64,000 bases of DNA from a virus (IMGVR_UViG_3300011008_000004:96001-160000); one strand, 5' to 3'. Positions 5,701 to 17,107 are shown, counted from the first letter of the stretch. The notes: generated by a model not told the origin, from the sequence alone. Numbers and translations: made by a program.

Positions 5701-5841
5701 TTACTTCTCATCTTTCTTTTCATCTGTTATAGTTATGGGTGTACTATTATCGTAGTAATTTTTATCATAACTATTATTCACATCAATAGCGAATAATGCG
5801 ATAAATACAGTTAAAACTACCATTAAAATATATCTAATCAT
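5701..5841 (-). CDS. Small single-pass membrane/secreted protein (46 aa)
   Basis: MIRYILMVVLTVFIALFAIDVNN... with a GAGG RBS; below the ORF-track length cut-off. Confidence 0.55.
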   Translation of the reverse strand: MIRYILMVVLTVFIALFAIDVNNSYDKNYYDNSTPITITDEKKDEK

Positions 5842-5867
5842 CTTATTTTACCTCTTAAAAATATACA

Positions 5868-5900
5868 AAAAGAGAATTCCTCATTTGAAGAATTCTCTTT
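5868..5900 (-). terminator. Intrinsic terminator
   Basis: AAAGAGAATTC...GAATTCTCTTT inverted repeat with a U-tract on the minus strand. Confidence 0.7.
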
Positions 5901-5906
5901 AAATTT

Positions 5907-6296
5907 TTACTTATTATTTAAATATTCTAATAATTCTTTAAACAAATATTCATCTATAATATAATGATTTTCATTATAAGGTGCATCCGGTCCAAAATTA
6001 AAAACAACCGCTTGATGCTCTTTATTGCAAAATATCATTTCATTACGATTCTTTTCAAACCATTCTCTCTTTATAGATATTGAATCCGAATTAGAAGTTT
6101 TTGTTTTGCATTCTATTAAAAAGCTTTCAGCGCCCTTTGTTGTAACATCACCTTTGCCGGAAAACATTGTGGCTCCCGAATTTGCAGTAGTTCTACCACC
6201 TACAGTTTTAGCTACATAATCTTCTTGTCTTTTAGAATAATATCTAGTAGGCTTCTTCTCGTCTTTAAATGAATATTTTTCAAACTTTCCAGCCAT
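5907..6296 (-). CDS. PD-(D/E)XK nuclease, Holliday-junction-resolvase-like
   Basis: NSGAT..KGDV...FLIECKT motif; directly downstream of recA. Confidence 0.7.
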   Translation of the reverse strand: MAGKFEKYSFKDEKKPTRYYSKRQEDYVAKTVGGRTTANSGATMFSGKGDVTTKGAESFLIECKTKTSNSDSISIKREWFEKNRNEMIFCNKEHQAVVFNFGPDAPYNENHYIIDEYLFKELLEYLNNK

Positions 6297-6299
6297 TAA

Positions 6300-7595
6300 T
6301 TATTCTGACTCCCTAGAAACCATAACAGCCGTTTCTTCATCCATTACAGTTATCCTTTCTTGCTTATTAATTTCTTCAGCTTCTTTTAAGGTTAAAGATA
6401 CACCTTGGTCTTCTTTTTGAATAGCTGCAGCAGTTTCTGCATCTAACAAGTTGCCAGAGAATTCAGATGAAGAAGATAACTTTTCATTTAACGCTAATGT
6501 ATACTTTTCAGTAAATTCTTTATGAGATTTGAAATATTGATATAAATCATCTTTCTTACCACGTAAATCATTACCATTTTCATCTTTCATTAATAGTTTA
6601 GTGTTAGGATCTAAAACTTCATACGTTACATTATTAAGTCTATTTATCATGTTAAACTTAGTGGCAATATTGAACATATCTTTAGTCACGTCCATATACG
6701 CTTGTTTACCTGTTTCATCAAACATATAAGTAATAAAACCACCACCACGAGTCGTAGGAGCTGTTTTATTTTTTAAGAAACTAAACTGAATTCTATAACC
6801 TGATGCGCCTTGTCCAGTTGCTGCATTCTTTTCTTGACCGGCTTTAGTAGAATTAGCTAATTCTTCACCATTTTCATCTAAGAATTTTCTCTTACCAAAT
6901 CTAATTCTCACACTTGCGTAGAACTTTATAGCATCACCACAAGGTTCATCTAAAATATCAGCGCCTGTAAACGTCTTACCTTTAATTCTAGTTTGGTTGA
7001 TAAGCATTAAATCAATGTCATTAGCTGCAATAGTAGGAATCATTTCACGTTGCCACTTATATAAGAACTTAGCGAGTGTTCCTCTCATACCATTGTCTTT
7101 TTCAAACTCATTTTCATAGTCAATAGAAGGAACTAATGCAGGAATAGAATCCACTATAATTAACGATATATCTGAAATACTATTAGCCATATCTAAAAGT
7201 GTACCTAAAACTAATTCACCAGATTCACCAACATCAGGTCTATATAAATAAACTTTGTCTGGATCAAAATTATTAGCTTTAGCATGATACTCAACATCGT
7301 ATGTGCTTTCAATATCTGCATATAAAATAGACTTATCTGGGAAATTTCTTTGATAGTCTGCAATTATAGCGCTTACACCAGATGTTTTTCCGGTGGAGTT
7401 TAAACCTGATACCTCTATAATTCTACCTTTATGTGGAATACCACCCCAAGTAGGATAAGCAATTCCAGGACATAAACTTTTAATTCTAGTATATTGCGGA
7501 ATTAAACTTGATTTTTGTAAAATATTTTCATTTTTTCTTGTTTTTGCAAATTGTTTAGCATAATCTGCAAATGTCATTTTAACTTTTTCAGCCAT
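6300..7595 (-). CDS. recA: RecA/UvsX-like recombinase
   Basis: GGIPHKGRIIEVSGLNSTGKT, IIVDSIPAL, INQTR, GDAIKFYASVR, KNKTAP. Start at MAEKV behind GGAG. Confidence 0.92.
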   Translation of the reverse strand: MAEKVKMTFADYAKQFAKTRKNENILQKSSLIPQYTRIKSLCPGIAYPTWGGIPHKGRIIEVSGLNSTGKTSGVSAIIADYQRNFPDKSILYADIESTYDVEYHAKANNFDPDKVYLYRPDVGESGELVLGTLLDMANSISDISLIIVDSIPALVPSIDYENEFEKDNGMRGTLAKFLYKWQREMIPTIAANDIDLMLINQTRIKGKTFTGADILDEPCGDAIKFYASVRIRFGKRKFLDENGEELANSTKAGQEKNAATGQGASGYRIQFSFLKNKTAPTTRGGGFITYMFDETGKQAYMDVTKDMFNIATKFNMINRLNNVTYEVLDPNTKLLMKDENGNDLRGKKDDLYQYFKSHKEFTEKYTLALNEKLSSSSEFSGNLLDAETAAAIQKEDQGVSLTLKEAEEINKQERITVMDEETAVMVSRESE

Positions 7596-7603
7596 ATATC
7601 TCC

Positions 7604-8107
7604 TCACTGATCTTCATAATTATCAGTTAACTTTCTATCGCTTGCTCTAGAAATTAGAATACTCTTTAAAGAATCTACAACTCTATGAGCTTCATCTAAC
7701 TTTGTTTTTATTTGACTTGCTATTAATTTGTACAACTTAGCTACAGCTTTATCCTTACTCGCAGATAAAATTGCGGTATTTTTTCTTTGTTCGTTATTAC
7801 CTTCAGCTGTATTAAATGCATCTGCCTGTGTTTCATCTTGAACAATTTCAGCTATTTCAGATGCTATATTAGTTTTATCTTTTATATCGCCTAAATCATA
7901 AGCTTTTAAAGATAATTGTAATTCAGCTCGTCTAATATCTTCATTAGTCAGTTCGTTTATATTATCATTTAAATATTTTATAAGTTCATCTATAGATTTA
8001 GTGTAGCCTTTAACAATATCTTTCGCTTGTGAATTTAAACTATTATATATTGTTTGAATATCACTCATACCGGTAGATAAATCATTACTTAAATTGTTTA
8101 TATCCAT
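7604..8107 (-). CDS. Helical hypothetical protein, possible recombination mediator
   Basis: 167-aa coiled-coil-like ORF directly upstream of recA; the function is inferred only from position. Confidence 0.5.
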   Translation of the reverse strand: MDINNLSNDLSTGMSDIQTIYNSLNSQAKDIVKGYTKSIDELIKYLNDNINELTNEDIRRAELQLSLKAYDLGDIKDKTNIASEIAEIVQDETQADAFNTAEGNNEQRKNTAILSASKDKAVAKLYKLIASQIKTKLDEAHRVVDSLKSILISRASDRKLTDNYEDQ

Positions 8108-8164
8108 AAACTCCTCTCAAAATATCATTTTACTTATATATTTATACAAAAAATGATAAAATAA

Positions 8165-8192
8165 AAGCACTAAGAAATTAATCTTAGTGCTT
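8165..8192 (-). terminator. Intrinsic terminator
   Basis: AAGCACTAAGA-AATTAA-TCTTAGTGCTT hairpin. Confidence 0.7.
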
Positions 8193-8211
8193 AAAATTTA
8201 ATTACATTTAA

Positions 8212-8814
8212 TTACTTTATAACTTCATAAACATCTTCATCTGCATAGGCTTCAAACCACTTATGCGCATAACTCCCTTCATATACTACGGCTCTTAAAC
8301 TAGTTACATCTTCAAAAGCATCACCGTCTATAAACTTAACACTTCTAGGAATAGCTATTTTATCACCAAGATCACAATAAGCAAATGCGCCTTGTTCTAT
8401 ACGCTCTACACCTTCATCTATAATAATGGTTTTTAACGATTCACATCCACTAAAAGCATAAGACCCGATAATTTTCACAGTGCCAGGTATATGTACTTTT
8501 TCTAAGTTTTCACACATCCAAAAACAACCCCAACCTATCTCAGTTATGTTTTCAGGAAATGTTCCTACCTCACCTAGCATCTTATCATTGTAATAATAGT
8601 ATTGAGGTAACGATGTTATATGAGACATTACATCTATATCTGCTTTATTTAATATATTCACCAATGCTTGCATAAAGTGTGCCTGCATTTCTTCATCAAC
8701 TTCATCAGTAAATGATACAACATTTTCAAATAGTTTATCGAAATTATTAGCGTTTAAAGCTTTTATATTTTCTTCATCACTTAAAAATTTATCAACTATA
8801 TCATATATAATCAT
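8212..8814 (-). CDS. BspA-type leucine-rich-repeat (LRR_5) protein
   Basis: Repeats IPGTVKIIGSYAFSGCESL, IDEGVERIEQGAFAYC, IPRSVKFIDGDAF. Confidence 0.85.
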   Translation of the reverse strand: MIIYDIVDKFLSDEENIKALNANNFDKLFENVVSFTDEVDEEMQAHFMQALVNILNKADIDVMSHITSLPQYYYYNDKMLGEVGTFPENITEIGWGCFWMCENLEKVHIPGTVKIIGSYAFSGCESLKTIIIDEGVERIEQGAFAYCDLGDKIAIPRSVKFIDGDAFEDVTSLRAVVYEGSYAHKWFEAYADEDVYEVIK

Positions 8815-9428
8815 ACTTCAAAATTCCCATCAGAGCAATGTATCGTAATTTTGTGTGACTTACCTGTAAACATAGTACCAGATCTAAATAATCTTTCACA
8901 AGAATTGATAGTATTTTGTACATAAATATCTTTTAAATTATCGCAACCGTCAAATACATCACGTCCAATATATAATGAACCTTTACCAAAATATACACTA
9001 TTTAAATGAACACAGCGAGCGAATACACCTCTATACAAACCTAGTAAATTATCATCAAAATGTACTGTTCGTATATTATTACAACTAGAAAAAGCATAAT
9101 TCTCTATGTACTATAATTGACTGTCTTCTTCAAATCTAATATCTACAAACTTGCCTTTAGAAAAAGCCAAAGGACCGATATATCTTACTTTATTAGGAAT
9201 AAACAGATGATCAATAGATGTATCTTCCATATATTTTCCAGGAATTTCAAGTAAATTATTTAATGGATTTAACCCAGCTTTTACTAATATTTCATTTATA
9301 TAAGAACCAGGTATCTACAAAGCCTATGCTTTATTAAATAAGTCTAAGAAATTACTATCATTTATTAGTGTTATATTAGCATTATCATTTAAAAAATCTT
9401 CTATCTTATAGCTTAATCTACTATCCAT
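8811..9428 (-). CDS. BspA-type LRR protein paralogue (205 aa, TAG=Gln)
   Basis: Open from ATG 9428 to TGA 8811 if TAGs at 9324, 9315 and 9111 are read through; IPNKVRYIGPLAF and IENYAFSSC repeats. Confidence 0.75.
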
Positions 9429-11179: not shown

Positions 11180-12055
11180 TTACACTTCGTCTCTTAATAG
11201 ATCATACGTTCCATCACAAAACTTATCTAAAATTTCATCACTAAATTCTTCATGTTCTGCTTTAACTTCTGCTATTGCTTGTTCTCTAGTTTTACCGTCT
11301 TTTTCAATAGCTGTTGAAATATACTCTTGAATTTCATTCAACATTTCATCCGCATACCATCTCTTTAAGATATATGGATCTGTAACAAATGGAACGTCGA
11401 CCTCAGGCTTAGCTGCATTAGACATTAAATAAGCCAATCTTTCAGAAACTTTTTCAGCGTTTTCTACAGGACATTCTCCTAATAATTCATCATGCACAGG
11501 AATTAGTAATTTATAACCAAGATCATTTATTTCTTTATCTTTAAAAATATTAACCATCGCTTTCTTAGTTAAAGATGCTGCACTTCCTTGAATTCTAGCA
11601 TTCGTACATTGTGTCATTGTTTTTGAAATAAATGCGCCATTATCTAAAACGTCAACTCCATTTTCTTTAGCTAATTCTTTAAACTTAGTTTTAGTCTTAA
11701 AACCTTTACCAGCATAGTTAGTATTATATTCATTAGTCCATCTAGCTGTAGCTTCTTTATCTTCAACTTCTAAAAATACATCTTTAGCTTGACAATCTAA
11801 AAACAGATCACAATTAGTACTCACTTTCTTTTTAGCTGTTACTTTAACTTCCGGTAAATTTGCATCAGGTAAGTGTCTACGTCTACCCATATAATCTTCA
11901 ACATAACCTTGTTCTTTAGCAGCTATAGCATTGCCATCTGTAAATTCTTTTATTTTAGGAAACTTTTCATAAAAATTTTTAAGTATTTCTTGGCATTCTT
12001 CATATGAAACCTTTAATTGTTGTGACATAAGATTAGCGCCCATGCCATACATAAT
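11180..12055 (-). CDS. polA: Family A DNA polymerase, final exon (motif B end and motif C)
   Basis: IMYGMG, GYVEDYMGRRRHLP, NARIQGSAA, PVHDELL. Confidence 0.9.
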   Translation of the reverse strand: MMYGMGANLMSQQLKVSYEECQEILKNFYEKFPKIKEFTDGNAIAAKEQGYVEDYMGRRRHLPDANLPEVKVTAKKKVSTNCDLFLDCQAKDVFLEVEDKEATARWTNEYNTNYAGKGFKTKTKFKELAKENGVDVLDNGAFISKTMTQCTNARIQGSAASLTKKAMVNIFKDKEINDLGYKLLIPVHDELLGECPVENAEKVSERLAYLMSNAAKPEVDVPFVTDPYILKRWYADEMLNEIQEYISTAIEKDGKTREQAIAEVKAEHEEFSDEILDKFCDGTYDLLRDEV

Positions 12056-12168
12056 CGTTTTATTTTAATATTTCTATTAAACCAGACTATCTCATAATCC
12101 TATATTTAGGATTTTACGCACTTCGATTAGTAACAATCTCTAATCTACACACATGTCTGTGTTAGTCG

Positions 12169-13005
12169 TTACACTTTATCTATGAATTTCCACTTAAAAC
12201 CATAAGCGTGTTTTGCTTTACCTTTACACACAGCTGATATAGCTTTAGCTGATGCTAAGCTAACAGCTATCTTATGTTCAACCAAATATTTAGAAGCCTA
12301 TGTCATAGATTTAAATGTCATTAAAATCTAATTATTTGATCTATCAATCATTGCAACTGATTTACTATTCTTATCTGAAATAATATCTCTAGTATGCTAA
12401 GAATGATGTTTATTAAAGAATGAATTGCGTTCACCCACACGTTGTGAAGCTAATATGCTTAACTTTTCATTCTTTACGCCACTATTCAATCTAGATCTAG
12501 ATCTATTAGTACACTTCTTTAATCCCTTATTAGGCGAAATTCTTCCTTTCAATTTGTTAGATATTTCTAAATTAGATTCATACTAATGATCTAAATTAGC
12601 CTAAAATTGTTTACTACATTCATATGCTTTCTAATATAATTCTAAATCAATATCATCTATATTAAAATCTTGTAAAGACTTACCATGTAATATATAGCGT
12701 ATAGATAAAATATTTTTAGATATATCATCATTAGATTTACTACATAATGCTAAAAAATAATGTGATTTTATATGATCTTTATATAATAAATTCACTAAAT
12801 TATTTTCAGAATTGTCTACATCTAAATTATTAGATATGAAATAATATTTGGGAATTATGTGATGCTAGTTATGTCTATAAGATTCATAATTAGTATCAAT
12901 GTTACTAATAATTAAATTTACATATTCATTTAAGTATTCATTATCAATAAATATATTAGTTTGCAATAATTTGTGTTTTAAGATATCAAAATTTATGTTA
13001 TTCAT
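12169..13005 (-). CDS. Intron-encoded HNH homing endonuclease with NUMOD-type DNA-binding repeats (278 aa, TAG=Gln)
   Basis: HN[TAG]HHIIPK...NLVNL..KDHIKSH; RNSFFNKHHS; C-terminal AVCKGKAKHAYGFKWKF. At least 7 in-frame TAGs; AGGAG RBS. Absent from the ORF track. Confidence 0.82.
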
Positions 13006-13018
13006 ACACTCTCCTGTA

Positions 13019-13027
13019 TAATTTAGC
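13019..13027 (-). promoter_or_regulatory. GCTAAATTA late-promoter-like motif inside the intron, upstream of the HNH gene
   Basis: GCTAAATTA-TAC-AGGAG-AGTGT-ATG. Confidence 0.7.
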
Positions 13028-13245
13028 TAGGTATTGTGTATGTTAACATACATAAATCTTAGCACGGTATTATCTGCTATCCAATCGCTGGACCGTAGAA
13101 TCTCTTACGAAGCTTATTCGCACAAAGTCTTAGTTCACTTCTACCGTTAGCAACTATCACTAGTTACACCTCTTTGTAATCAGAGTTCACGTAATTATTC
13201 GATACACATCACTGTGTAAAGGGGCATTATATAACCTTTCAGTCT

Positions 13246-13511
13246 ACCCAACATTAAAGTTTTACCCTTTTTTCTTAATTGTTTTCCTGCAAAGTTAGGA
13301 GAACCATCTTCCCAATGTTCCATACATTCCCAATAATCTTTATGGACTGCTGGTGCATATATAGTTGCATATGGGTCACGTTTCTCTTCAAATGTTCTTC
13401 TCAATTCTGGATCTTGAGAAAGATGAGTGAATAACCGTGGTTCTTGCGCTGACTTCAGGAAAAGTCTCCTCCCACAATTGAATAATTAATTCGTGTTCTT
13501 AGACTTCTCAT
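13246..13511 (-). CDS. polA: Family A DNA polymerase C-terminal subunit, first exon (motif A to motif B), interrupted by 8 extra nt at 13450-13457
   Basis: Strong RBS AAGGAGGTG, then MRSLRTRINYSIVGGDFS-TGA. In the -1/+2 frame it continues SAQEPRLFTHLSQD...RKKGKTLMLG. Confidence 0.8.
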
Positions 13512-13632
13512 TAGCATCACCTCCTTTAGTACCCTCTTGGCACCATCTAATATTTTAATATCTACAAAATGAATACTCACTTTATAGGTAATTCTACTAA
13601 ATTGTATATATTTTCTTATCTTTCTTTAAATT

Positions 13633-13794
13633 TTATACCTTTTGTTTATACGTAAGCAAAGCTTTTACAGATTCTTCATTATATCTATATTTACCATTTA
13701 TATTAGAATCTATTTTTATCAAACCTTGTTTTACATACTTATACAATGTAGGCTTGCTTATCTTCAACAAATTCATCACTTCTTTTGCTTTCAT
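13633..13794 (-). CDS. Small MerR/excisionase-type HTH protein (53 aa) between the polA halves
   Basis: MKAKEVMNLLKISKPTLYKYVKQGLIKIDSNINGKYRYNEESV; its ATG overlaps the polA-N TGA (ATGA). Confidence 0.7.
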   Translation of the reverse strand: MKAKEVMNLLKISKPTLYKYVKQGLIKIDSNINGKYRYNEESVKALLTYKQKV

Positions 13795-15347
13795 GCTACG
13801 TCCTCTAAGGTTAATTTTATTTTATTTTCTAAAACTTCTACTTTAGTTACCTTATAAAACTCATCATCACTTCCAGTGATAATATCATTTTCTTTTATAT
13901 CTTTTATTCTAACCCATTTATTGTTACACATTACATCTACATAATCATTTAAAATTATTTCATTAGAATCTTCTATATTCTCATCTTTATATTCCGTAGA
14001 TGCTTTAAACATCATTCTCATTGAAGTTTCATGTGAAGGAATCTGTTGTAGATTTGGATTAGTTGAACTAAATCTCCCTGTTCTTACGTTATTATCTTCT
14101 GCACCCATTTGATTAAAGTTAGCATGAAGTTTGCCATCTTTTTCAGAAATACAATTTGGAAGAGATTTAGTAAATGTTTTCATTAAAATACTAAAGTGTC
14201 TATAATCTAATAACGCTTTTGTAAATGGGTGATCTATCGCTTTTAACGCTGCTTTATCAGTAGACTTATTTTCATCTAATGGTTTTATCTTTAATATATC
14301 ATATAAAACTATTTTAAGTTGAACTGGACTTTCATAATTTATTGGATCATCTAATTGTCCTAATGATCTATAACTATCTAACTCTTTCTTATATGGGGCT
14401 AATATTTCATTCATCTTATTAGATGCTTTTTCTAAACCTTTAGTATACTTATCATCTAAACGTTTAACATAATCTACGTCAAGACAAATTCCATCATCTT
14501 CCATTTTAGATGTTACTAAAACTATTGGGACTTCTACTTCACTAAATAACTTGTATAATTTTTCACAGCCCTTCTGCTTAAATAACTCTTCTTGATATTG
14601 TTGTAATTTATAAGTATCAAAAGCATCAATAGCTGCATATAATGCAAATATTTCAGGATCGACCCAAGCATAAGGTAAACCAGTAAATAATTTTTCAATA
14701 TTGTATGAACCAATTGTAGGATCTATATGGGTTTTATATTGAAACTTCAATTTAGCTTGTTCATTTTCATTCATCATTTGAGCTGCTATCATTGTGTCCC
14801 ACCATATTGGAAGATATACACCCATAGTGTTAAAACAAACTCGTATATCAAATTTCCCATTATGATATATCATTTTAGTATTATTATCTTTTAATTTTTG
14901 AAATACTTCCTTTACGCACTCATCTGATACTTGATCTTTTAATCTTTCGTCTGTTCCAGGAACACAGTGATTCATTGGAACATATACTGGTTTTGTATTT
15001 GGAAGATACATACACAAACCCATTAACTTACAAGTTAGTGGATCCAAACTATTATTAGTTTCTGTATCGAATGACAAATAATCTACTGCAATGGCTCTAT
15101 CTATATACTCTCGTAATTCATCATCAGTCCTTATAACCTTAACAAAGTTTTTATATCTTCCTAAAATTTTATAAACTTCTTTTGAGATATAATCGAGTCT
15201 ATCTTCTAGTGGCATACTAGAGATAGACTCTTTCTTTTTAACAGCATGAGTTTTGCCAAGTTTTATAAGTTGAAGACGAATAGCGTCATTATTTATAACA
15301 GGAACTTCAAAATCATCTAGCAATGAAGCTTTTCTAAATTCCGCCAT
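13791..15347 (-). CDS. polA: Family A DNA polymerase N-terminal subunit (3'-5' exonuclease and thumb) with a Hint-like C-terminal tail
   Basis: FDTET, HNGKFD and YAAIDA exonuclease motifs; RTGRFSSTNPNLQQIP; ends before motif A. Confidence 0.9.
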   Translation of the reverse strand: MAEFRKASLLDDFEVPVINNDAIRLQLIKLGKTHAVKKKESISSMPLEDRLDYISKEVYKILGRYKNFVKVIRTDDELREYIDRAIAVDYLSFDTETNNSLDPLTCKLMGLCMYLPNTKPVYVPMNHCVPGTDERLKDQVSDECVKEVFQKLKDNNTKMIYHNGKFDIRVCFNTMGVYLPIWWDTMIAAQMMNENEQAKLKFQYKTHIDPTIGSYNIEKLFTGLPYAWVDPEIFALYAAIDAFDTYKLQQYQEELFKQKGCEKLYKLFSEVEVPIVLVTSKMEDDGICLDVDYVKRLDDKYTKGLEKASNKMNEILAPYKKELDSYRSLGQLDDPINYESPVQLKIVLYDILKIKPLDENKSTDKAALKAIDHPFTKALLDYRHFSILMKTFTKSLPNCISEKDGKLHANFNQMGAEDNNVRTGRFSSTNPNLQQIPSHETSMRMMFKASTEYKDENIEDSNEIILNDYVDVMCNNKWVRIKDIKENDIITGSDDEFYKVTKVEVLENKIKLTLEDVA

Positions 15348-16129: not shown

Positions 16130-17107
16130 TTACATGATTTCTCTTTCAGAATAAATTTTTTCAAACTCATGCTGTTCAAGATCATTTATATCCTTTCCTT
16201 TAGGTACTCTCATACAAGTAACGATTTTTCCATGTAAATTTTTCGCTATGTTATATAAACCATGTCTTCCGGCAGTATCATTATCTAAAGCTAAAATTAT
16301 CTCTCTTTGTGGTAACTTATCTAATAATTCTATTTGATAGTCGCTACCAGTACCAAATAATGCTATCGCTTCTTTCCCATATACATAACATGTTAATGCA
16401 TTTATAACACTTTCACAAACTATAACTTCATTAGTTGTTAAATAATCTAAACCATAAATTGGTTTTGGATATATTTCTGGCATATCGAATCTTTTATAGT
16501 TTACATTTCTTCTTGCCACAAATAAACATTTGCCATCTACCCAAACTGGAAATGTTAAAGATTTAGTTTTTGGATCATAACCTACATCGAATTTATTTAT
16601 AATATCATCTGTAAGTTTACGTTTAAACATATATGGGTGTATAAAATCATATGACTTTAATTCATCCAATGTTACAGTAGGTAATGTATTATAATTATTC
16701 TCATATTTTTCATGTTTTTCTAAATCTGTTATTTCTCGCTTTTCTTCTATGAAATCATAATTAGATACATTCAATATCCACTCAGTCGCATCTCTATATG
16801 ATATATTTAAACAATCTGATACAAATTTAACAAAACCTGCTTTATATCCACATGCAAAACAATGAACTGTCCCTGCCGGAATCGCTTCTCCATTTCTAAT
16901 TTTATCTATCAATAAAATATCACAAGATGGCGTGTTTTCGTGGCCATCTGCGTGTATTGGACAAGTTATTCTCGCATTGTTATTATTAGAATAATCTATA
17001 ATATTTAGTTTATCAATATGAGACACGTACAACTGTTGTCTTAACATTTCCAATAAATCTCTTATAGGTGTTTGTATCTCTTTATTGTTATCAACTATTA
17101 ATGGCAT
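16130..17107 (-). CDS. dnaG: DNA primase
   Basis: CPIH...HCFAC zinc finger; TOPRIM motifs VCES, LALDNDTAG, KDIND. Confidence 0.9.
   Translation of the reverse strand: MPLIVDNNKEIQTPIRDLLEMLRQQLYVSHIDKLNIIDYSNNNNARITCPIHADGHENTPSCDILLIDKIRNGEAIPAGTVHCFACGYKAGFVKFVSDCLNISYRDATEWILNVSNYDFIEEKREITDLEKHEKYENNYNTLPTVTLDELKSYDFIHPYMFKRKLTDDIINKFDVGYDPKTKSLTFPVWVDGKCLFVARRNVNYKRFDMPEIYPKPIYGLDYLTTNEVIVCESVINALTCYVYGKEAIALFGTGSDYQIELLDKLPQREIILALDNDTAGRHGLYNIAKNLHGKIVTCMRVPKGKDINDLEQHEFEKIYSEREIM

Follow-up and report, generated by a model that had tools for sequence, protein, structure and literature searches.

We analysed a window of 64,000 nucleotides (nt), bases 96001-160000 of the 214,257-bp virus record IMGVR_UViG_3300011008_000004, and focused on the DNA polymerase gene (polA) that lies on its minus strand at positions 11180-15347. 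The record has direct terminal repeats, is rated complete and belongs to a gut-type phage, here called W, the phage of the window. DNA_pol_A and DNA_pol_A_exo1 were both found above the Pfam cut-off, identifying the product as a family A DNA polymerase with exonuclease. P0003, an unsplit relative of 818 amino acids (aa), is colinear with four pieces of the W minus strand: its residues 1-454 map to 15347-13989 (frame -3), residues 440-462 to 13526-13458 (frame -3), residues 462-534 to 13452-13234 (frame -2, displaced by 8 nt) and residues 531-818 to 12055-11183 (frame -1). The first chain is an open reading frame (ORF) of 518 aa (13791-15347) comprising the 3'-5' exonuclease, the N-terminal polymerase part up to R-M-M-F-K-A-S, and a C-terminal tail of about 65 aa (13794-13994) delimited by comparison of relatives; it matches DNA_pol_A_exo1 at 1.8e-14 and DNA_pol_A at 5e-25. 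Its stop codon, TGA at 13793-13791, overlaps the ATG of a 53-aa helix-turn-helix (HTH) ORF (13633-13794, minus strand) that lies between the chains, the overlap reading ATGA. Chain 2 starts in the segment 13458-13525, where the Shine-Dalgarno (SD) sequence AGGAGG (13525-13520) precedes the ATG at 13511 by 8 nt; its first 18 codons give MRSLRTRINYSIVGGDFS, the last of them being TCC at 13460-13458. After an interruption of 8 nt it continues with an exon of 68 codons, AQEPR...KTLMLG (13246-13449), which holds the rest of motif A and the first half of motif B. Beyond a group I intron follows the last exon, 291 codons plus stop (11180-12055), with the second half of motif B, motif C (VHDE) and the C-terminus, matching DNA_pol_A at 5.8e-35. 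Exo I-III and motifs A, B and C are all intact in W polA. A preliminary description of this locus had proposed that an active polymerase requires the assembly of two chains, a hop over 8 nt in motif A and group I splicing in motif B; the division into two chains is confirmed by the colinearity with P0003 and by the SD and ATG that chain 2 has for itself.

The interruption, TGAAGTCA (13450-13457), consists of the stop codon TGA, the dinucleotide AG and a TCA codon. It comes once chain 2 has read eighteen codons, the last three being D-F-S of motif A, and the frame restarts at GCG 13449 with GCG CAA GAA CCA CGG (AQEPR). Ser462 of P0003 is matched twice, by TCC before the gap (13460-13458) and by TCA at its end (13452-13450), here termed the take-off and the landing codon. 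D-F-S-A-Q-E-P-R is a natural motif A, found identical and uninterrupted in two related loci, L007 and L009. Reading TGA as an amino acid was considered and rejected: the zero frame after TGA gives SQRKNHGYSLIFLKIQN followed by a stop, unlike polymerase. The 8-nt interruption noted in the preliminary description is present in the sequence and in a 151-nt contig from an independent study (run X2, depth 2), which covers 13410-13560 with zero differences, so that it is not an assembly error; like inserts were found in 35 of 106 related loci, well above what chance would give. None of the contigs from runs X1, X3 and X4 spans the gap in its W form, and no sequencing run registered as RNA contains this part of polA. 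The X1 contig is identical to the window over 344 nt (13100-13443), diverges beyond 13443 and reads ...GGA GGC GAC TTC TCT GCG CAA GAA TGACT / GAA CCA CGG. This strain variant has no insert after the serine codon and shows the GAA/GAA hop type of L042 and L054, which suggests a recent exchange of the mobile cassettes discussed below among close relatives.

The closest relative, L011, whose chain 1 is 86% identical to that of W, has the same polA architecture and a different gap (8 nt, TGAAGTCA, in W vs 9 nt, TAACGATCT, in L011, as TCT TAACGA TCT). Between the two, dN/dS was 0.087 for chain 1, 0.096 for the exon directly after the gap and 0.091 for the last exon, at a dS of 0.7-1.0. Hence, the reading frame downstream of the gap is under strong purifying selection. 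These values bear on the possibility that polA is dead or dying, the insert being inactivating and the phage being replicated by a host polymerase or by strain variants. A stop plus frameshift in a catalytic motif does resemble a null mutation; moreover, the W cassette appears to have lost its endonuclease already, and the X1 strain variant has a different motif A region. However, dN/dS downstream of the break is 0.09, at a dS of about 0.7-0.9 since the split from L011, in which the break is of the same design. No in-frame stop was found in any polA exon, and no other frameshift over 2.7 kb of exons. Furthermore, 33 distinct versions of the design are known, some of them from complete genomes with terminal repeats, and the X1 variant too has a hop-type insert, though a different one (GAA TGACT GAA). 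We therefore consider a dying gene very unlikely. In this respect the earlier argument against decay holds well: the catalytic motifs are intact, the exons are free of TAG, and exon dN/dS (about 0.09) gives no sign of relaxed selection. There is a single polA locus in the complete 214-kb W genome, where neither PolB nor Pol III alpha found a match, in agreement with the view that W has no second replicative polymerase.

About 160 related loci were collected from two scans with the chain 1 alignment, and 106 were scorable at motif A after removal of duplicates. The canonical D-[FY]-S-[Q/A]-Q-E-P-R was present in 71 of the 106, and in 35 motif A was interrupted by 5-15 extra nt, these inserts forming 33 distinct sequence versions. 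A stop codon directly follows the take-off codon in 32 of the 33 versions (TAG in 17, TAA in 8, TGA in 7). Take-off and landing codons share positions 1 and 2 in 27 of them, as UCC and UCA do in W; 19 pairs are identical and 8 synonymous, and three further versions match at positions 2-3. The binomial p for this sharing is ~2e-27, a value that, like the other p-values given here, overstates significance since the loci are not phylogenetically independent, which has to be set against the reading developed below. Take-off is mostly from the motif A serine codon. Five loci would hop from other nearby codons, with GAA-stop-...-GAA in three, located three codons beyond the serine, and CAA-TAG-...-CAA in one. 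Hence, what recurs is not one fixed sequence but a match of codons around a stop, and such matching, as far as sequence can tell, is the signature of peptidyl-tRNA re-pairing.

The insert lengths are spread over all three frame classes (15/9/9 among the 33 versions, modulo 3), so read-through is no general answer. The same spread weighs on a programmed -1 (or +2) frameshift at UUU-UCC-UGA, which in W would give D-F-S-L-K-S-A-Q-E-P-R with three extra motif A residues, and which in relatives would give way to +1 shifts or read-through, depending on length. Such a shift has its attractions: an 8-nt gap amounts to a -1 shift, shifting is known to be stimulated when the A site holds a stop codon, and 7 nt before the take-off codon there is an SD-like GGAGGAG. 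However, three different mechanisms would be needed at one site, there is no slippery heptamer, and re-pairing from UCC to UUC would be poor. Moreover, frameshifting would add 1-5 variable residues between Asp-x-Ser and Q-E-P-R, where 71 of 71 canonical loci have none, and it leaves unexplained why the take-off codon matches the codon before [Q/A]QEPR in 27 of the 33 versions. We thus regard frameshifting as quite unlikely. The GGAGGAG element also enters into another alternative, a three-chain enzyme, in which an 18-aa peptide with the catalytic Asp would be released and a third chain would re-initiate, for example at CUG 13458-13456, which lies 7 nt behind this strong SD-like sequence in the frame of exon 2. 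Termination followed by re-initiation is common in phages, but in W the exon 2 frame, from its upstream stop to AQEPR, is free of ATG, GTG and TTG, and the relatives have no consistent start codon or SD there. A free 18-aa peptide with the metal-binding Asp strand is structurally unlikely, and the codon matching would again be unexplained. Taken together, a third chain appears extremely unlikely.

The identity of the gap's stop codon provides a further line of evidence. The W genome has 11 tRNA genes (ARAGORN), two of them with anticodon CUA (C1:2606-2680 and C1:163136-163233, both outside the window), and W therefore decodes TAG as a sense codon at least part-time. The gap begins with TGA in the TAG-recoded W and with TAA in L011. 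In L068 and L164, TAG occurs repeatedly as sense inside polA, at the second Gln of QQEPR and at other residues (L068:1918-1945; L164 near 5789-5830), direct evidence for a putative Gln-like recoding of TAG in an early replication gene, and their gaps begin with TAA and TGA. The complete genome behind L005 encodes ten tRNAs and no CUA suppressor, and its gap starts with TAG. The stop codon of the gap thus appears to track the phage's own genetic code, as would be expected for a hop and not for a DNA scar or for excision at the RNA level. Such excision, by a micro-intron or by hairpin-loop excision and ligation before translation, might be suspected from the small hairpin within which the insert lies and from the longer group I-like insertions at the same site in other relatives. 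However, no bacterial or phage mechanism is known that removes 5-15 nt; the repeats on either side keep to codon boundaries in every case and allow wobble changes, in line with tRNA re-pairing and not with ligation; and a first gap codon that is a stop suited to each phage's code is relevant only to the ribosome. RNA excision is accordingly scarcely probable.

A hairpin of 5 bp is predicted at the take-off site (13451-13466, minus strand; RNAfold, -5.7 kcal/mol). It is formed by GACUU (13466-13462) with AAGUC (13455-13451), pairing the Asp-Phe codons with the gap and the first bases of the landing codon, and its loop, UUCCUG, contains the take-off codon and the beginning of the stop. Summed over the 20 versions whose gap has one or more free interior bases, the minimum free energy was -85.5 kcal/mol vs -37.2 +/- 7.0 kcal/mol for random gap interiors, none of 1000 being as low (z ~-7).

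Other observations speak against a hop, or at least against parts of it. The predicted hairpin is reminiscent of the stem-loop at take-off in gene 60, but it could equally be the footprint of fold-back repair at a cut site and not a stimulator, and in wider windows around the site predicted mRNA stability was the same in insert-bearing and in other loci. Two loci are exceptions to the pattern, L047 for want of a codon match and L075 because its 5 nt (tca GCCTC gca) lack a stop. For in-frame TAG inserts in phages of unknown code, read-through is possible. In W itself, the landing codon UCA differs from UCC, and one tRNA(Ser) must read both or make a wobble mismatch. W encodes no tRNA(Ser) to serve the two codons, none being present among its 11 tRNA genes (ARAGORN, whole genome). 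Finally, the basic leader peptide at the start of chain 2 is found likewise in split genes without an insert, and it hence gives no clear indication of a hop-specific nascent-peptide signal.

Weighing both sides, we hold with good confidence that the ribosome hops over the 8-nt gap, and that the gap is carried by a homing-endonuclease cassette, as in T4 mobA/gene 60. We propose that selfish elements of two kinds entered the sole replicative polymerase gene of W. The first, a cassette of the T4 mobA/gene 60 type, would have split polA between F-K-A-S and I-V-G-G-D-F-S, given the upstream half its 65-aa tail and the downstream half a short basic leader with its own ribosome-binding site, and imported its own motif A segment with a short untranslatable insert. 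The second element, a subgroup IA intron with an HNH gene in motif B, would be removed by self-splicing. When a ribosome on chain 2 reaches Ser18 (UCC) with UGA in the A site, it would not terminate; instead, the peptidyl-tRNA(Ser) would leave UCC, the mRNA would slide, and the tRNA would re-pair at UCA 8 nt downstream, probably aided by the small hairpin joining the Asp-Phe codons to the gap. Decoding would restart at GCG to give D-F-S-A-Q-E-P-R, a normal motif A, and the predicted peptide across the junction is INYSIVGGDFSAQEPR. Whatever efficiency the hop may have, a failed one would release merely an 18-aa peptide, vs a 460-aa exonuclease fragment in an unsplit gene. Apart from common descent of the cassette, such cheap failure near the gene start may explain why gaps are so strictly tied to splits.

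This link is evident among the relatives, where inserts occur only in split genes, all of which have the tail (35 vs 0 of 60 unsplit genes; Fisher p ~1e-18). An ORF that we read as a free-standing endonuclease lies in the split of 14 insert-bearing loci; by motif inspection, nine split ORFs are HNH, three GIY-YIG and one LAGLIDADG. Pfam, applied to one example of each, confirmed GIY-YIG and LAGLIDADG and recognised nothing but NUMOD3 in the HNH example. A 556-aa split ORF of L024 (6270-7937) has no Pfam match; its endonuclease role is assigned from position only, and it is possibly another endonuclease family. No endonuclease ORF was found in split loci without an insert (p = 0.02). The split of W has no free-standing endonuclease and just the 53-aa HTH ORF, and we read the W cassette as one that has probably lost its enzyme. 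As a side observation, HNH and GIY-YIG split endonucleases share a C-terminal region (L025:2917-3762, L027:3217-3939, L045:6001-6723; GDTRS..CYCILNTGE.F.FHSYK.AGKWW...PFG..Y.E..FQRKIK). It is presumably the DNA-binding part, and it looks like the catalytic domain may have been swapped on one DNA-binding module.

The cassette is mobile among the relatives. On a tree of the N-terminal 330 residues the insert trait needs 26 changes and is thus no less scattered than shuffled labels, which need 26.6. In three pairs of loci (L042/L052, L054/L048 and L027/L145) a block of 1.0-1.2 kb differs, flanked by polA sequences that are mostly 91-100% identical, the identity of L027/L145 falling to 0.67-0.89 further off. 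In L042/L052 the block begins right after the M-F codons and ends about 25 nt past the landing codon, and identity dips locally there, marking a diverged motif A segment. For W itself, mobility is represented by the X1 strain variant with its other cassette type. Long group I-like insertions, read as introns, start exactly after D-F-S in other relatives, and the motif A site is therefore a proven target of selfish elements. Two further pairs were noted. The near-identical polymerases of L059 and L062 (branch lengths 0.009 and 0.018) differ in their hops, the gaps being 14 nt at the Ser codon vs 13 nt at CAA two codons on. The N-terminal parts of L075 and L159 are nearly identical; L159 is unsplit, keeps the insertion domain and has no gap, and L075 is split.

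Across the relatives, the split, the insert and the intron each vary in presence. The idea that conserved polymerase motifs are hot spots for homing endonucleases, and that the insert may make the site immune, is supported indirectly by the endonucleases in the splits of 13 relatives, by the insertions at D-F-S and by the cassette-polymorphic pairs of near-identical genes. The preliminary description had further suggested that the split and the insert may be domesticated relics. They do not, however, go back to separate events, as both are parts of one mobile cassette. On balance, it seems likely that a large and so far undescribed family of cassettes splits phage family A polA genes and leaves behind a gap of 5-15 nt that begins with a stop and is hopped over; such a gap would shield the site from the endonuclease and would also throttle production of the catalytic chain.

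To our knowledge, programmed bypassing is known almost solely from T4 gene 60 and its homologues, the 'byps' of yeast mitochondria and one proposal for a Streptomyces phage. MobA elements combine a C-terminal extension, an endonuclease, an N-terminal extension, a diverged target segment and a bypass (10.1101/2022.08.31.505936), and the T4 gene 60 bypass is carried by such an element (Huang et al. 1988; Bonocora et al. 2011, as these two papers are reported in that preprint). The resemblance to the polA loci is extensive. In both, an essential replication gene is split, the upstream part having a C-terminal and the downstream part an N-terminal extension, and the splits of the W relatives hold a free-standing HNH, GIY-YIG or other endonuclease. 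In both, the insert lies tens of codons into the downstream gene, with a stop after take-off, a matching landing codon and, by prediction in the polA loci, a hairpin; and the cassette is polymorphic among near-identical genes, the endonuclease often being lost with the bypass kept. In contrast to T4 gene 60, the target here is motif A of a family A polymerase and not a topoisomerase, the gap is 5-15 nt (8 in W) instead of 50 (20 in one clade), take-off is from Ser UCN (sometimes GAA or CAA) instead of Gly GGA, and it occurs at about codon 18 instead of codon 46. There is no sequence similarity between the two cassettes, the stop varies here with the phage code, and the polA hop is read from sequence.

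In the Streptomyces phage phiHau3, 10-nt bypasses triggered by UUA were proposed for the terminase gene (Smith et al. 2013; Antonov et al. 2023, PMC10732093); the proposal was made from sequence and then gained support from mass spectrometry in E. coli (PMC10732093). As in the polA loci, a very short (about 10-nt) disruptive insert lies in an essential phage gene. Unlike in the polA loci, bypass there is triggered by a sense codon that is rare and linked to the development of the host, few genes are concerned, and there is no cassette or split. Fractured genes in which split inteins occur together with a free-standing homing endonuclease have also been described (Dassa et al. 2009, PMC2677866). 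The W family resembles them in that the gene halves flank an endonuclease gene and the upstream half ends in a small beta domain with a faint resemblance to Hint, and differs in that the W tail and leader lack the splicing residues, so protein splicing is not expected. A full-text literature search returned no paper describing a bypass in a DNA polymerase gene, and the MobA preprint (10.1101/2022.08.31.505936) does not mention a polymerase.

If the proposed hop is real, the polA loci would form the first natural family of very short programmed bypasses, with dozens of independent sequence versions, and thus a natural mutational series in gap length, stop type, landing codon and hairpin for the study of short-range take-off and landing. 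They would also show that endonuclease cassettes repeatedly solve the problem of self-cleavage by recoding their target. Gene callers fragment such polymerases or label them pseudogenes, and a key replication gene is probably mis-annotated in many gut and rumen phages. The W locus, which would unite a hop, RNA splicing, two-chain assembly and an amber-dependent intron endonuclease, could serve as a test bed for combined layers of recoding.

The second element of W polA is a group I intron of subgroup IA type (P7.1/P7.2), 1190 nt long (12056-13245, minus strand), in motif B between LG and IMYG. The presence of this intron, already proposed in the preliminary description, is borne out by alignment of its core and by covariation in homologues. 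The 5' exon ends in U and the intron in G (12056), and the joined exons read KTLMLG/IMYGMG, as in intron-less relatives. The end of the 5' exon is UUGGGU, and the internal guide that would pair with it, GCCCC, lies 20 nt into the intron. With its ORF removed, the W core aligns throughout with the ORF-less introns at the same site in L011, L005, L012, L080 and L148, and in these five homologues 37 of 61 consensus pairs show compensatory changes. Covariation supports a long-range helix, read as P3; the P7 strands GACUA/UAGUC are invariant and can pair across P3. Two extra hairpins lie between P7 and P3', which we take to be the P7.1/P7.2 of subgroup IA. Rfam gave nothing at gathering score on the window, only chance-level matches at E up to 10, and Intron_gpI matched the ORF-less intron of L005 weakly (20 bits vs a threshold of 50, E 0.007). 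From these features the intron would be predicted to self-splice.

The intron contains a gene of 278 codons (12169-13005, minus strand; NUMOD3 by Pfam) for an HNH/NUMOD homing endonuclease. This ORF occupies the P6 loop region, and its last codons overlap the intron core (GTGTAACGACTA). Seven in-frame TAG codons and no other stops interrupt it, and one of them aligns with Gln in each of the three other endonucleases compared. Aligned over its full length, the product has 41% identity to the endonuclease of the L004 intron, an intact HNH/NUMOD enzyme. Since the endonuclease has seven TAGs and the polymerase exons none, the endonuclease would be made only under amber suppression, of which the polymerase would be independent. 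Bacillus phages SPO1 and SP82 have subgroup IA introns with the HNH endonucleases I-HmuI/II in their DNA polymerase genes. The W intron likewise interrupts a conserved motif of a family A polymerase and has an I-HmuI-like HNH/NUMOD ORF that loops out from the core; unlike in SPO1/SP82, the W ORF needs amber decoding seven times.

The tail of chain 1 is missing from unsplit relatives of 817-836 aa and is found in all split ones. In P0112, P0117, L076 and L159 an insertion or tail domain is retained within an unsplit protein. AlphaFold predicted the tail as a six-strand beta domain (pLDDT 81), and dN/dS between W and L011 was 0.41 in this part. A profile of 27 tails matched the gp41-1 intein in the PDB faintly, at E 0.008, and Hint_2 of Pfam was found in 5 of the 27 tails at E 0.01 or weaker; a Foldseek search of the tail against the PDB gave nothing significant, inteins occurring only among the non-significant matches. 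An intein origin of the tail may thus be taken as a weak lead. Protein trans-splicing by a split intein is not expected, as the tail begins with T-E-Y after F-K-A-S, without Cys or Ser at the junction, and the downstream leader, MRSLRTRINY, has no His-Asn plus nucleophile. Because residues for protein splicing are absent and some unsplit relatives retain the tail domain, we expect the two chains to assemble non-covalently. An SD and a start were found in all 46 split relatives, 17-24 codons (in a few 34-40) upstream of the motif A serine. From the chain 2 start to the take-off serine the distance is 17-22 codons in almost every locus, and the basic leader of chain 2 (MRSLRTRINY...) is of a kind absent from unsplit relatives.

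The 53-aa ORF between the chains matches HTH_17 (Pfam, 2.4e-11), and an IS607-type serine recombinase has a homologous HTH at its N-terminus (tblastn, L080:7210-7362). In L080 this segment opens a 203-aa protein with a Resolvase domain, after which comes a 453-aa ORF taken to be TnpB-like; recombinase and 453-aa ORF together (7210-9172) are located just downstream of polA. In L067 an HTH fragment (6020-6115) follows chain 1 in the same position as in W. We read the W ORF as a probable remnant, a solo copy of the recombinase DNA-binding domain, at the place where the endonuclease would have been lost.

The window has about 29% G+C, and its strand composition is strongly one-sided. Adjacent to the polA locus are a primase-like gene of the Toprim/zinc-ribbon type (16130-17107) and two genes that Pfam does not match. 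Among GenBank phages, Megablast with the locus as query gave no match, and the closest protein matches to its products are only 31-41% identical. A degenerate DNA pattern for YWECMEHWE, searched in viral contigs, found only two already known relatives. L011 carries an extra insertion and a replacement split ORF (5820-6066 and 6340-6615). The insertion, about 250 nt without an ORF at GRFSSTNP/NLQQIP, is presumably an intron, and the split holds a 92-aa P-loop-like ORF instead of the HTH ORF. In databases, numerous proteins some 440 aa long terminate at the same GRFSST site, and an intein of Hint plus HNH is found there in P0038, P0052, P0081 and P0107.

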